In this document: positions 33,001 to 39,000 of the stretch, piece after piece
Position numbering within the stretch: the stretch's first letter is position 1
Layout: each line of letters starts with the position of its first letter
NCBI GenBank assembly: GCA_041739995.1
Contig: JBGSMV010000047.1
Coordinates: forward strand, 3,972-67,971
Direction of reading: 5' to 3'
Length of the DNA stretch: 64,000 nt
Source of the DNA: Bdellovibrionota bacterium
GTDB lineage: Bacteria > Bdellovibrionota_C > UBA2361 > JBGSMV01
Made by a program: the position numbers

Positions 33001-36000
33001 AAAATGCTGTGCTAAGGAAGCTGGCATCGCCGCATGGGAGTTCTTAAAGTCGCGCATCTCTGAGCTACAACTGGACGCTAAGGTATTTAGAACCAAGGCG
33101 AACTGCTTACGCCTCTGCCGCAGCGGCCCAATCGCGGTCGTATATCCAGACGGGGTGTGGTACCATTCCTGCTCACCTGAGGTGCTTGAGCGAATTATTA
33201 ACGAGCACCTGATTGAAGGGAAAATCGTCGAAGAGTTCCTTTTATCTCGCTCAGAATGTGGGGATCCTTGAATTGACCTGCTCAAATCGCTAGTGTTTTG
33301 GCCTGGACTGTCGAGCCGAGCTGGGGCCTCATTGAGCTATCAAACTACTAACTAGGCAGACAAAAAATTAGGCACTCCTCAAGGCGAGTAATTCTCAAGA
33401 ACAATCAACCAAACCGGAGACAATTATGGCTATCAATAAAACTAATTCCAATGTGACGTTCAAGGGCGACAAACTCTCACTCGAGGGTCCCGCACTGAAG
33501 GAAGGCACTCCGATGCCAACCTTTACCCTCACCGCACAAGACATGTCCGACCTTTCCAGTGAGAGCCTGAAAGGAAGCGCTCTTTTGATCTCAGTGGTTC
33601 CCAGCCTTGATACTCCAGTGTGTAATGTTCAAACAAAACACTTTAATGACGAAGCTTCAAAATTTGGCTCGGCGGCTCGACTACTTACGGTCAGCCTGGA
33701 TTTACCGTTCGCCCAAAAGCGCTGGTGCGGCGCCGAAGGAGTCACACACTCCATTACCGGATCGGACTTTAAGCATCGCTCGTTCGGTACGACCTTTGGA
33801 TGTTTCATTAAGGAATGGGGCCTACTAGGAAGAGCGATTTTTGTGGTGAACGGAAAAGGGATCATCACCTATTGCGAGTATGTTGCTGAACTCAGCACCG
33901 AACCAAACTACGAAGAGGCCCTCAAGGCTTTGAGTGCTGCGATAGAAACGAAATAACTTTTGGATAGGTAGTGTATGCGCCTGCTTCACATAGTCGCTGA
34001 CTATGCCCCAGGAGATCTCGCGTTCTCCGAGATGATATCTGCTCTCGCCAAGCATTTGCCTGACGATTTCCGTTGGCATTACACAGCGGTGAAGAGTTTT
34101 GACACCATCGCCACTGGATTTGTGGTGGCGCAGCTTGGGCTTCAGAAGGAGTCGTTGCGTGCTCCAAAAACCTATCTCTATGTGAACTGCGCTCCTCGGA
34201 AGGACCGCAAAGAGGCCCGCCCACAGAACGAAGGCGAGGGGCTCTTGTACGTTCGCTTTGCGACCGGAGTGGAAGGGGTTGTGGTAAATAGCGGTTATTC
34301 TCTCTCTTTCGCTCGAGATGGAATCACGGAGTTATCTACTCTCAATATCGAACGTGGCGGCTCACAGTTCCGTTCACGAGACATCTTTCCACCTGCGGTT
34401 GGATTTGTGGCCAACAAGGACTACAGCATCTGTGGCGCAAAGCTTACACCTGCAGAAGTAATCCCCGACGCCCCTGTCGGGGTAGTCGGATATGTCGACT
34501 CTTTCGGCAATCTTAAAACCACCTACCGCGAGGGAGATAAGATTGTAGGCGCCCTAAAGCCTGGCCAGCGTGTTCGGGTAGCCATTAATGGGGTTGAACG
34601 AACTGCGAGCGTGGCTTCTGGTAGTTTCAACGTGGATGAGGGCGATATTGCCTTCGCCCCAGGGAGTAGCGGCCATGAGCGTCGCTTCTGGGAGATATTT
34701 CAACGTGGCGGCTCAGCCTCAGAAACCTTTGGAAACCCGAGGGTCGGCAGCGAAATCCAACTTCTCGACTAACCTGCTCCAAAAGTTAAACAAGGGAATC
34801 TCGTCAATCTCATACGGCTTCTAATCGGGTATTGTCTGCGCGGCACGTTCTATTTAGCGTGACGGGGTGGGATCAAATCAAATGCTTAAAACATCTCTCT
34901 TTTTGAAGAACGGTCTAAGAAAACGATGCCTAGGCACGTTATTTTTGCTCGCTTCGCACTGCTTGCTCGCCTCCTCTACCGTGGTTGCTGAAGAGTCCTC
35001 GCCCCCTAACCCAACTCAAGAAGTATCAGAGGTCGCCAGCCCAGCCACGGCCAAACCCGCTCCAAAGCCAGTCGCAAAATCCGCGCCCACCAACGGAAAG
35101 AAGCGCCAGAGACCGCTGGTTGGTTGGATTGAGCAAATCGCTCTCACTCGTGGCTCTATCATCTTAAATGCAAAACTTGATACGGGTGCAGATTATTCAT
35201 CCCTCCACGCCCACGACATTCAAGAGTTTGAAAAAGACGGCGAGGTGTGGGTTAGATTTGATGTTACCGACAGAGTCGGACGCAGCTTTCCAGTTGAACA
35301 AAGAGTCATTCGCACTTCGTCCATCAAGCGTATGGGCGGCAAACATCAGCGCCGAAATGTAATACGAATGGGAATCTGTCTGGGAAATACTTATCTCAGA
35401 TCCGATATCAACCTTGTGGATCGATCTGACTTCAAACTTCAGATGCTACTTGGCAGAAACTTCCTGGCGGGCACTGTCGCCATCGATCCTGCCATTTCCT
35501 TTACTACCGAGCCCGATTGCGAGCTATCTTGGACTGCTGCCGACTCACAAAAATAACTATGAAAAATTCAAGAGTGTTTGTTGCCGCTGCGCTACTCATA
35601 GCCTCGGGTTTGGGAATTTTCTTCTATAAGATTTTTTCACTGGGGTTTCCCGTCACTCCGGACACCACCGCGAACATTTGGAATGTAGAGGCAAGCGTCT
35701 CATTTTCGACTCAAGGCAAGTCTGCAAAGGTTTCTTCGTTCATTCCGAAGAGTACCAGTCGGTTTTCGATTCTTGATGAAAGTTTCATTTCGCGAGGATT
35801 CGGACTTTCTACCGTTACCCGCGACTCAAATCGAGCTGCTGAGTGGTCTATTAGACGAGTCTCTGGAAAACAGACGCTTTTCTATCACGCGGTGGTGCGA
35901 GAGCTTGAGCGCTCTAACTCCACGGTCACTACTAAGCCGCCTCTTGTGGAAGATCCTCAATTTGAAGGCGCAGAATTAGAAGCTGCCAAGACGATTCTTT

Positions 36001-39000
36001 CAGAGTCCAAGGCCCAGTCTGCTGATGTCCTAAGTCAAGTCCGCGAAGTTTTGCAGCGAGTTCAGGCCAAAGATCGCGATGATGCAACCTCGCTGCTGCT
36101 TGGGCCTAAACCGTCTGAGCTCGACAAACTCTCCCTCGCGTCTAAGGTACTCGCACTAGATCGAATCGTGCTCAGAATCGTCCACGGCATTCAATTAATC
36201 GACAATCGAAGGAACGTGCCGCTCATTCGTTGGCTAGAAGTTCATACTGGCGGTACCTGGGTTTCGCTCGACAGTTTTGGAAACCCTTCGAAAGATCTGG
36301 AACTCACGCTCCCTTGGTGGCGCGGCACTGAAGCGATTGGATATATTTCCGGAGGATCGCGGCTCGGCATTCAGATTGCAGTCAGCCGTCACGAAGAAAG
36401 CGCAGTGACTGCGATATTGGATAGCGGTCAATCTTCAAAACCATTTCTGCTCGAATTCTCCCTGTTTTCACTGCCGCTTCAAACCCAGGGCGTATTTCGT
36501 ATCATGCTGCTTGTTCCACTGGGTGGTTTCTTAATAGTACTTCTCAGAAATGTGGTGGGACTTCCGACTTTTGGGACCTTCATGCCAGTGCTGGTTGCGC
36601 TTTCCTTTCGAGAAACAGACATTCTGATGGGCTGCATATTCTTCTCACTCGTAGTCGCCATAGGTCTGGTGGTGCGATTCTGGCTTGAGAAGTTGAAGCT
36701 ACTGCTCGTTCCTCGACTAGCGGCGGTCTTAACCTTCGTGGTTCTACTACTGGCTATAGTCGCAATCGCCGCCCACAAGTTTGGCGTCGAACATGGCCTT
36801 TCGATTGCGCTATTTCCGATGGTCATTCTCACGATGACGATCGAACGTATGTCGATTGTATGGGACGAGCTCGGTGCCAGTGACGCGCTCAAACAAGGCT
36901 TCGGCAGTCTATTTGCAGCCGTACTTGCTACCTTTGTATTTACTTACGAGCCGGTTGAGCATCTGATTTTTGTGTTTCCCGAACTCCTCTTGATCGTTGC
37001 CGCGCTCTGTCTCTTGCTTGGACGATACAGTGGTTACCGATTAACTGAACTTCGTCGCTTTAGGGCTTTTGCGGAGAAACCATGAGATTCGCCTGGCCCT
37101 GGGAACTCGCAGCGAAAGGCGTGGTGGGAATAAACCAGCGCAATGCTGATTTCGTCCTGCCCTTCAACGACCGAGAAAGATATCCCCTCGTCGATGACAA
37201 ACTACGTACCAAAACGCTGGCCCTGGAGCACGGGATAGCAGCTCCTGAACTCTATGCGCTAATCGAGAGCAATCATCAGGTCAGCTCACTTCGATCTCGC
37301 ATTGGAGACATTCAAAGTTTTGTCATTAAGCCCGCCGGCGGCAGTGGTGGACAAGGTATTCTAGTCTTTACTGCGGCGACCAAAGATCGATTTCGTACCA
37401 TCCATGGCCCCATGCTTCCGTTGGAGCAACTTGAACACCATGTCTTGAATATCCTTACCGGGATGTTCAGTTTGGGTGGACAGCCTGACAAGGCGATAAT
37501 TGAGTACCGAGTAGAATCTGACCCTGTCTTTGAACCGGTTTCTTATCGTGGCGTTCCTGACGTGCGCATCATTCTCTTTCTTGGCGTTCCTATCATGGCG
37601 ATGTTGCGGCTCCCTACTAGCACCTCAGAAGGGAAGGCCAACCTGCACCAAGGCGCGATTGGTGCCGGCGTCTCTATGCGTGATGGCAAAACTACAACTG
37701 CGGTGTCCGGAGGTGTCATCGTTTCTGAACACCCAGACACCGGACATAGTATTATTGGGCTGCAAATTCCTCACTGGGAGAGACTGCTCGATATTGCGGT
37801 GCAGTGTTCGGACTTAGCGCAACTTGGTTATATCGGGGTTGATCTCGTTATCGATAAGGACAAAGGGCCACTTCTACTCGAGATGAATGCTCGACCAGGG
37901 CTCGCTATTCAACTTGCCAATCGAAGCGGTCTTGAATCACGTATTCGCAAGGTGCAAAGCTTTCGAAAGGACCTTTCGGATCGCGATTCACGAGTTGCCT
38001 TCGCGATAGCTTCCTTCTAGGAGTCTGTGACACAGGCACATGGTGAGTGAAGGCGAACCTTATCACAGACCCCTCGCCTACAGCGCCACATGCTCACCTG
38101 TGGCTTAAACTCTAAGCTGCTCGCCCACCGCATAGTGCCCTCGGTCGTCAAGAATCACCGTGCATGCTTCGAGTGAAGCGTCGTGCTCGAAGACTACTAT
38201 CGCTTTCTCGGAACGCGCTCGCTCTAGAAAGCCAGCCTTCTCCTTTAGAACAGTTTCAGCACATGCATCATAACCCATGTGAAACGGAATCGGTAAGTGA
38301 TGCTGAGTAGGCACGAGGTCAGTCGGATAGAAAAGCTTCATTCCTCCGCCGTAGATCTCTACCCACTGCTGCCCTCTCGTATGTCCGTTTACCTGATGTA
38401 CAACAATCCCGGGATGGACTTCCATCTTTCCTTCAACCTCAAAGAAGTTACTGCCGACGAACGGTTCAAAATTTTCTGGCAGGTAGCTGGCTTTTTCCTT
38501 TACTGAAGGAGCTCTCGCATTCCTTAGATTATCGCGCTGAAGAATCACTCGCGCAGTTGGATATATGAGTTCGACAGCACTGCTGCCTTCTTGGTATTTT
38601 GAAATTCCGCCTGCATGATCAAAGTGCAGGTGGGTCAGAATAATGTCTGTAATCTCTTCGGCTCGCACGCCTACTTTATCGCTTGGAAGATTCTCAATGG
38701 CGAAGATTTCACGCTGCTTAGGAGTCCACTTTTCTCCCATACCCACATCGATCAGAAACTTCTTCTTCGCAGAATCATCAGTCACGACCAAACAGCGAGT
38801 GGCAAGCCTAATGCAGTTCTCGGCATCTGCTTCAATGCGACGAGACCAAAGATTCTTTGGCACTGAGCCAAACATTGCCCCACCATCGAGTCGAAAAAAT
38901 CCGAAGTTGTGCGCCGTAACTTTTAAATTTCCAAATTCCAACATAGCTAAAGCTTGTACTCTTCTGACCTAGATCTCGGCAAATGAGATTTCTGAACCGC

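Follow-up and report, generated by a model that had tools for sequence, protein, structure and literature searches.

The closest described system to the locus studied here is the rloA-rloB-rloC operon (rloABC), which was defined in Pseudomonas aeruginosa by Lormand et al. (mBio 2025; PMC12239564). Our subject is a three-gene cluster of the same kind, encoding a retropepsin-like protease, a membrane protein, and an ATP-grasp ligase, in a stretch of 64,000 nucleotides (nt; hereafter, the window) from the Bdellovibrionota contig JBGSMV010000047.1, positions 3,972 to 67,971. Lormand et al. described the RloA proteases as secreted, retropepsin-like enzymes that form homodimers and have a basic cleft; in vitro, the P. 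aeruginosa and P. fluorescens proteins cut stretches of 8 or more consecutive glutamates (PMC12239564). The rloA1-3 triple mutant does not grow in low-salt medium (hypo-osmotic sensitivity) and displays biofilm, antibiotic-sensitivity, and cell-shape defects, which are suppressed by deletion of either rloB or rloC (PMC12239564). P. aeruginosa has no genome-encoded poly-Glu substrate, and the products of RloC and RloB were explicitly left open (PMC12239564). The PAO1 counterparts are PA1768-PA1767-PA1766 (PA14_41710 is rloB and PA14_41730 is rloC); they had surfaced earlier in P. aeruginosa screens for exopolysaccharide suppressors and ceftazidime resistance, and a Shewanella homologue of the membrane protein influences membrane-vesicle production. 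Curated NCBIfam models are available for the rloABC proteins (NF052262-NF052267), as are the crystal structures 9G58 and 9G59. The Pfam families of the triad trace back to Iyer et al. 2009, according to a citation in PMC12096838. The first-pass annotation of the window had described the triad as uncharacterised; the operon has in fact carried the name rloABC since 2025, and what stands of that description is that the product of the ligase is still open family-wide. Our literature search found no paper after Lormand et al. 2025 that resolves the biochemistry of RloB or RloC.

A second likeness is to the RimB-RimK pair of the RimABK system, in which a PF05618 retropepsin-like protease is also paired with a RimK-type ATP-grasp ligase, RimK making and RimB cutting poly-alpha-L-glutamate in the ribosomal protein S6 system (PMC11957791). 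The Rim proteins differ in that both are cytoplasmic and have no membrane partner, whereas the window protease has a predicted signal peptide and an invariant Cys pair, a membrane gene stands between protease and ligase, and the ligase lies below the RimK family cutoff (46 versus 143 bits). In Gram-positive bacteria, a cytoplasm-facing ATP-dependent amide ligase and membrane subunits (PgsBCA/CapBCA) extrude poly-gamma-glutamate, and there is an extracellular hydrolase. The likeness of this system to rloABC is one of logic alone: its proteins are not known to be related to those of rloABC (PgsB is of the Mur-ligase type rather than ATP-grasp), and its glutamates are gamma-linked.

The window triad is, with a confidence close to certainty, an intact but diverged member of the rloABC operon family, as judged from its sequence. 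It shares with the P. aeruginosa operon the three protein families, their order and orientation, and their tight coupling, as well as a protease that combines a DTGA motif with conserved basic residues, the inferred counterparts of the substrate-binding ones; a signal peptide is predicted for the window protease. As a kind, it is thus already known from the published operon, and this copy is an ordinary one. Reading of the sequence for open reading frames (ORFs) revealed three intact, co-directional ORFs on the plus strand at 34882-38020, in agreement with the tight linkage that had been proposed. The rloA-like gene (34882-35556) encodes 224 amino acids (aa) from an ATG at 34882 to a TAA at 35554-35556. 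The triad had been said to begin at 34867, where an alternative in-frame GTG could indeed start a 229-aa protein; however, a purine-rich stretch upstream of the ATG makes 34882 the more likely start. The rloB-like gene (35559-37085) has an ATG start and encodes 508 aa up to a TGA at 37083-37085. The first intergenic gap measures 2 nt ("ct") rather than the 3 nt given earlier. The rloC-like gene (37082-38020) encodes 312 aa, also from an ATG, and ends with a TAG at 38018-38020; its start and the rloB stop share the 4-nt ATGA overlap at 37082-37085 on the plus strand, exactly as first described, consistent with translational coupling. GC content is even across the triad region (0.47-0.54), and all three proteins keep every residue that is invariant in their families. 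A promoter and terminator scan gave nothing above shuffled controls, and nothing in the 34773-34881 spacer upstream of rloA. We found no paralogues of rloA, rloB, or rloC elsewhere in the window and no tRNA genes, rRNA genes, or Rfam matches anywhere in its 64 kb.

The RloA-like protein belongs to PF05618 (RimB/RloA retropepsin-like; E = 2.8e-33, 115 bits against a Pfam cutoff of 27), a family whose old Pfam name was "zinc protease" and which is now regarded as RimB-like. The RloA3, RloA, RloA2, and RimB models were the only NCBIfam matches at E ≤ 0.01, all of them below the curated cutoffs (RloA3, 109 versus 210 bits; RloA, 88 versus 280 bits), and the TIGR "clan AA DTGA" model that had been expected was not among them. 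In the PDB, the sequence matched 9g58 (8e-21), 9g59, and 2pma; 9g58 and 9g59 are the crystal structures of RloA and RloA2 (PMC12239564). Based on a hydropathy scan and a reading of the N-terminus, which has a basic n-region, a hydropathy peak at residues 17-35, and a VVA|EE site, residues 1-36 (34882-34989, plus strand) form a predicted Sec signal peptide. They are followed by a Pro/Ala/Lys-rich low-complexity linker (residues 37-78; 34990-35115), which is not conserved, alignments to relatives with tblastn starting at about residues 63-81. The retropepsin-like protease domain, delimited by alignment to the RloA crystal-structure sequences, covers residues 79-216 (35116-35529). The active-site motif D-T-G-A (D100-A103) reads at 35179-35190, so that the description of a protease with a DTGA active site was borne out by the family match and the motif; secretion would fit the predicted signal peptide.

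The window protein retains each of the 10 residues found invariant across 71 RloA homologues, D100, K98, R181, C166, and C213 included, and R158 is conserved in at least 90% of homologues. By arithmetic on the PDB alignment, allowing for an 8-residue indel, K98, R158, and R181 would be the counterparts of P. aeruginosa RloA residues K46, R114, and R137, which bind poly-Glu and are required for complementation (PMC12239564). We also observed that Cys166 (35377-35379) and Cys213 (35518-35520) occur without exception in the 71 operon-linked RloA homologues. The pair probably forms a periplasmic disulfide, which fits export, and it could serve as a simple marker of secreted RloA versus cytoplasmic RimB, a suggestion drawn from a comparison of the RloA side only.

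The RloB-like protein matched PF14400 (inactive transglutaminase fused to a seven-transmembrane (7TM) region; 3.5e-44) and PF14402 (7TM_transglut; 2e-96), the latter over residues 262-504. Its AlphaFold model (mean predicted local distance difference test, pLDDT, of 80) agrees in topology with the hydropathy scan. In this model, an N-terminal transmembrane helix (residues 3-28) precedes a periplasmic part of about 270 aa (residues ~29-300; 35643-36458, plus strand) that is composed of a beta-sandwich (40-115) and a transglutaminase-like core (138-277) without the catalytic Cys. A seven-helix membrane bundle (residues ~305-490; 36471-37028, plus strand), placed by the model, the hydropathy scan, and PF14402 and containing many invariant charged residues, R351, E429, R430, and E475 among them, leads into a basic cytoplasmic C-terminal helix (495-506), giving eight transmembrane helices in total. 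These results uphold the proposed architecture of a periplasmic domain of about 300 aa joined to a 7TM bundle, with the modelled domain somewhat shorter and one N-terminal helix added, and the predicted topology and the hydropathy scan support a layout of the triad that spans cytoplasm, membrane, and periplasm. A sequence search of RloB against the PDB returned no match, and the membrane bundle has no transporter-like relative among solved structures.

We examined the transglutaminase triad across 65 RloB sequences, with positions assigned by motif pattern, not by residue-level structural superposition. Ser occupies the Cys position in 65/65, and the periplasmic domain has no conserved Cys; 45/65 have the expected His, in place of which the window protein has Arg, and 54/65 retain the Asp. 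The label "inactive" appears justified because the Cys position is Ser throughout and the His is found in 45/65 only. The putative cysteine protease of Cytophaga hutchinsonii (3isr) and TgpA of P. aeruginosa (6g4h) differ from RloB, which has an invariant Ser in place of the catalytic Cys and an unconserved His; the fusion of the transglutaminase-like domain to a 7TM bundle is, in this comparison, confined to the RloB family. Where the catalytic Cys helix would start, a Ser-Ala-Asp motif (S154-A155-D156; 36018-36026) is invariant, as are R206, G210, and W234. This pattern suggests that a binding pocket has been preserved despite the loss of the Cys; a Ser-based activity of the domain is conceivable from its sequence. 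We considered the RloB C-terminus as a glutamate acceptor of the RimK/S6 kind and rejected it: the tails are variable and one of the 65 ends in Glu, which makes an S6-like tail acceptor on RloB unlikely.

The RloC-like protein scored 425.5 bits with TIGR02291 (RimK-related "alpha-L-glutamate ligase-like"), above the curated cutoff of 314.2, in line with the RimK-related ligase that had been named in the first-pass annotation; profile searches of Pfam and NCBIfam thus placed both the membrane protein and the ligase in the predicted families. Its best Pfam match was PF14397 (ATPgrasp_ST, "sugar-transfer associated ATP-grasp"; 1e-87, 294 bits), compared with 48 bits for the RimK domain. The RimK family model TIGR00768 was not reached (46.3 versus a cutoff of 143.4 bits, over residues 237-274 only), and phmmer searches against RimK structures gave E values of about 1e-3. 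The window protein retains 60/60 family-invariant residues, among them the ATP-grasp K83, the Mg-binding D254, E267, and N269, and also R271. With the AlphaFold model (pLDDT 88), the nearest solved folds were ArgX/LysX, RimK, and cyanophycin synthetase (Foldseek E values from 1e-11 to 1e-9; template modelling score, TM, of ~0.5; 12-20% identity). All of these enzymes are known to activate the C-terminal carboxylate of a peptide or protein and to add an amino acid. A specificity of RloC for glutamate would follow by analogy with them. The comparison with LysX/ArgX-LysW, which together with cyanophycin synthetase provides the top structural neighbours, ends at the carrier: neither a LysW-like carrier nor any other co-conserved small protein of 60 aa or more is encoded near the triad.

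Compared to the P. aeruginosa operon, the window copy is clearly diverged. RloA and RloB reach 109 of 210 and 445 of 900 bits, respectively, against the NCBIfam cutoffs, the RloB model being the one annotated as "osmotic stress tolerance membrane protein". The RloA and RloB models are of the "exception" type with high cutoffs, so by the NCBI naming rule the two proteins are family members and not close orthologues. Among the matches listed, window RloB is 44-50% identical to gammaproteobacterial copies, and the host is a member of the Bdellovibrionota rather than a gammaproteobacterium. The window RloA has an extra Pro/Ala/Lys-rich linker of about 40 residues, the RloB His position is Arg, and a remnant of a miniature inverted-repeat transposable element (MITE) adjoins the rloC stop codon. 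Pseudomonas also has unlinked RloA2 and RloA3; within the 64 kb of the window there is no second rloA.

To assess the conservation of the triad, we compared gene neighbourhoods in relatives. More than 5900 RloB homologues were present in the protein collection. The closest relative (locus L001), with 76% identity in the membrane protein, has the triad in the same order as the window, and a relative with 56% identity in the membrane protein also retains it. A scan of species-representative genomes yielded at least 80 loci, and 83 related loci were analysed; the taxa among those listed were Desulfobacterota, Bdellovibrionales/Oligoflexia, Nitrospirota, Candidatus (Ca.) Kuenenia, Dadabacteria, SAR324, and Gamma- and Betaproteobacteria. 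Among the genome-scan matches listed, the top RloB identity to the window was 51%, and the highest RloA identities among the loci listed (50-53%) included those of the four uncultured Bdellovibrionales loci, one Dadabacteria locus, and one Betaproteobacteria locus. The triad had been said to recur in many Proteobacteria; it does recur, but that range is too narrow, as Nitrospirota, Ca. Kuenenia, Dadabacteria, SAR324, and others carry it too.

In tblastn searches, the membrane gene was directly followed by the ligase gene in 83/83 loci and directly preceded by the protease gene in all but 12, one of which has incomplete sequence; counting the window, 71 of 84 regions had the protease in this upstream position. 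With start codons refined, protease and membrane genes were separated by a median of -4 nt (71 loci), and membrane and ligase genes by a median of -1 nt (78 loci); at each of the two junctions, 65 loci had a gap no longer than 10 nt. These results, together with L001, establish the synteny of the triad in relatives and identify the membrane-ligase pair as the invariant core, the protease being usually but not always linked. Occasional unlinking of the protease fits the unlinked RloA2 and RloA3 of Pseudomonas. In the loci without a linked rloA, which include several from Steroidobacter/Povalibacter, the protease may be either unlinked or replaced; no rloA was detected within about 6 kb upstream (E < 1e-5) in L013, L023, L035 (Ca. 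Kuenenia), L057, L058, L067, L068, L069, L072, L075, and L080.

A small co-conserved precursor ORF had been considered worth looking for. Clustering of ORFs of at least 60 aa over the 84 regions (~6 kb) returned the three triad families and antisense shadow ORFs, with the next real cluster present in 12 loci; there was no fourth co-conserved gene in this size range, smaller ORFs not having been examined systematically. The absence of a co-conserved gene of at least 60 aa within about 6 kb indicates that the triad is self-contained, and the protease-membrane and membrane-ligase gaps leave no room for a precursor ORF. In the window, the triad is flanked by a thiol peroxidase gene (tpx) and a SAM_HAT_C-like gene (33426-34772 for the two together) and by a convergent metallo-beta-lactamase-fold gene (38105-38944). 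The same three flanks occur in L001 (200-5779), beyond which the two loci differ (DUF1302, DUF1329, BNR, and MMPL genes in L001). As these flanks are absent from the broader family, the flank synteny is lineage-specific.

From these data and the published genetics, we propose, tentatively and at somewhat below even odds in our own estimate, that RloC builds, RloB transfers or displays, and RloA trims a glutamate-rich chain. RloC, a cytoplasmic enzyme of the RimK/LysX type, would extend a C-terminal carboxylate by amino acids, most probably L-glutamate, at the expense of ATP, giving an alpha-linked glutamate-rich chain. RloB would be the inner-membrane partner that takes up the chain and either hands it over to the periplasm or displays it there, with its transglutaminase-like domain, bereft of the catalytic cysteine, acting as a binding module and not as an enzyme. 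RloA, exported and homodimeric with a basic cleft, would cut long Glu runs and so limit the length and amount of polyanion in the envelope; without RloA, the RloB/RloC product would accumulate and damage the envelope. The glutamate specificity of RloC, export by RloB, and the in vivo substrate are the parts of this scheme that we infer, and the invariance of the Mg/ATP residues of RloC counts for its ligase step. The scheme resembles the "modify, translocate and process" pathway, for example by poly-glutamylation, of the first-pass annotation. That idea agrees with the cleavage of at least 8 Glu by P. aeruginosa RloA and with the suppression by rloB or rloC deletion.

Several observations weigh against this proposal. 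The best Pfam family of RloC bears the name "sugar-transfer associated ATP-grasp", and the RimK model gives just 46 versus 143 bits. Its matches among solved structures are distant (TM ~0.5, 12-20% identity), so that glutamate specificity is an analogy, and no biochemical activity has been reported for any RloC. About 11 loci with full upstream sequence have no linked rloA. In addition, with the window RloA and RloB below the NCBIfam cutoffs, their functional equivalence to the Pseudomonas proteins is assumed.

The same observations can be read in other ways. RloB could be a sensor or regulator rather than an exporter, its pseudo-transglutaminase domain binding an envelope ligand (such as a peptidoglycan peptide or a poly-Glu fragment) and controlling the activity of RloC from the membrane to the cytoplasmic side, with RloA cutting a separate poly-glutamylated or acidic substrate or the ligand itself. 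This would parallel the tuning of RimK by RimA and RimB, and regulation of RimK by RimB is documented in that sister system (PMC11957791). A dead domain that nevertheless keeps the pocket-like residues S154-A155-D156, R206, G210, and W234, on a membrane bundle lacking a transporter-like solved relative, would suit a binding role of this kind, and the published epistasis fits it equally well. We nevertheless consider a sensor unlikely: if the RloC product were purely cytoplasmic, the need for periplasmic poly-Glu proteases would go unexplained, and neither the P. aeruginosa genome nor the window encodes a periplasmic poly-Glu protein. In the window, no run of at least 6 acidic residues (D/E) is encoded in any frame of the 64 kb.

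The 294 bits with PF14397, far above the 48 bits of the RimK domain, raise the alternative that RloC is not a Glu polymerase at all, and instead amidates or aminoacylates another acceptor, such as a lipid-linked glycan, a peptidoglycan precursor, or a cell-surface polysaccharide, which RloB would flip or anchor while RloA acts on some other acidic substrate. The Pseudomonas and Shewanella phenotypes (cell shape, beta-lactam sensitivity, exopolysaccharide, and vesicles) do point to the cell wall or envelope. This appears distinctly improbable to us given that the linked protease family is poly-Glu-specific in vitro and that mutants in its Glu-binding residues fail to complement (PMC12239564), that RloC belongs to a clade related to RimK (TIGR02291) and finds its closest solved folds in RimK and LysX/ArgX, and that no glycosyltransferase or sugar-handling gene is co-conserved with the triad. 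Finally, a MITE-like repeat adjoins the 3' end of the ligase gene and no promoter or terminator signal exceeds shuffled controls, as might be seen if the genes were chance neighbours or a decaying, MITE-disrupted remnant without joint function. Such an explanation is barely credible here, and synteny and conservation effectively refute it: the three ORFs are intact with all family-invariant residues kept, order and tight coupling are conserved over 83 loci in many phyla, and the MITE leaves the ligase length unchanged relative to L001.

A more specific form of the build, transfer, and trim proposal is that RloB and RloC together constitute a synthase-coupled export machine, delivering a non-ribosomal poly-alpha-L-glutamate (or Glu-rich) polyanion to the periplasm, where RloA would be the depolymerase that sets chain length. 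This version is possible, though we regard it as doubtful in itself; the evidence mildly favours it, and it concerns the whole family, not the window copy. If it were true, the polymer could serve as a fixed charge or osmotic buffer, in the manner of osmoregulated periplasmic glucans, and many Gram-negative phyla, with the probably predatory lineage of the window among them, would contain a periplasmic polymer that has so far escaped notice.

For the family as a whole, the product of RloC and the role of RloB are a worthwhile question. It has practical weight in P. aeruginosa, where sensitivity to beta-lactams, the formation of biofilms, and survival after osmotic down-shock are all influenced by the operon. 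The operon also occurs widely in the Desulfobacterota, Nitrospirota, Bdellovibrionota, and Ca. Kuenenia. The window contributes one diverged copy of rloABC, from a lineage that lies outside the Gammaproteobacteria, the group in which the system was studied. Of possible use for the function of RloC and RloB are the findings that the membrane and ligase genes form a translationally coupled core that is kept in every locus, without a fourth conserved gene in its vicinity, and that the protease can be unlinked from this pair.

The repeat at the rloC stop codon belongs to a MITE-like family with the terminus CTAGGAGTCTGTGACACAGG, which is present in three copies in the window, of about 125 bp (11760-11884), 199 bp (28162-28360), and 60 bp (38017-38076). 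The terminus occurs at 28162 (plus strand), 28341-28360 (minus strand), and 38017 (plus strand), and at 11760 with 2 mismatches, giving 4 matches compared with 0.01 expected. Alignment of the three copies showed a single family with the features of a MITE, being short, non-coding, present in several copies, and bounded by terminal inverted repeats; no transposase was seen in the window. The CTAG/TA ends are reminiscent of IS630-type targets. The short copy at 38017-38076, to which no strand was assigned, is internally deleted and shares 20 nt, without mismatch, with the ends of the 28162-28360 copy; its inverted arms are 92% complementary, and its right end is too degenerate for a target-site duplication to be read.

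The rloC stop TAG (38018-38020) coincides with the last three bases of the terminal CTAG of this short copy, and the ligase stop had accordingly been described as supplied by a MITE end. The orthologous site in L001 has no element and encodes a ligase of the same length (312 aa) that ends in ...Ala-Ser-Phe-TAA at the same codon; the spacer between the ligase and the downstream gene is 18 nt in L001 versus 84 nt in the window. The empty site with TAA suggests that the insertion took place at the TA of the former stop codon, turning TAA into TAG. Judged by this comparison, the MITE end provides only the third base of a pre-existing stop, the protein is unaltered, and the insertion is harmless, so the earlier description holds for the position of the TAG within the CTAG but not for the stop codon as a whole. 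A similar arrangement was observed at the 11760-11884 copy, where a putative gene of 184 aa without a Pfam match (11209-11763), which overlaps the end of an ApbE-family gene, also stops at a TAG inside the terminal CTAG.

Outside the triad, the window encodes an unusually long flagellin (623 aa) and two secreted subtilases, and contains a co-directional run of minus-strand ORFs (22679-24550, 28441-30390, 49121-57421, and 58545-60398 for these features together); a TadA-family (Tad-type) ATPase lies at 53207-54619 within that run. The combination of flagellin, subtilases, and Tad-type ATPase would fit a motile, protease-rich, and possibly predatory lifestyle. The SufB protein of the window is 88% identical to one from a "Proteobacteria bacterium" metagenome-assembled genome, 82% to one from a "Bdellovibrionota bacterium", and 77% to SAR324; together with the gene content, these values point to a Bdellovibrionota-like host. 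Upstream of the triad, an ABC-3 permease (a component of metal ATP-binding cassette transporters) at 31549-32904 is fused at its C-terminus to a DtxR-type metal-binding/dimerisation domain (PF02742), and a second ABC-3 permease (30611-31552) directly precedes this fusion.

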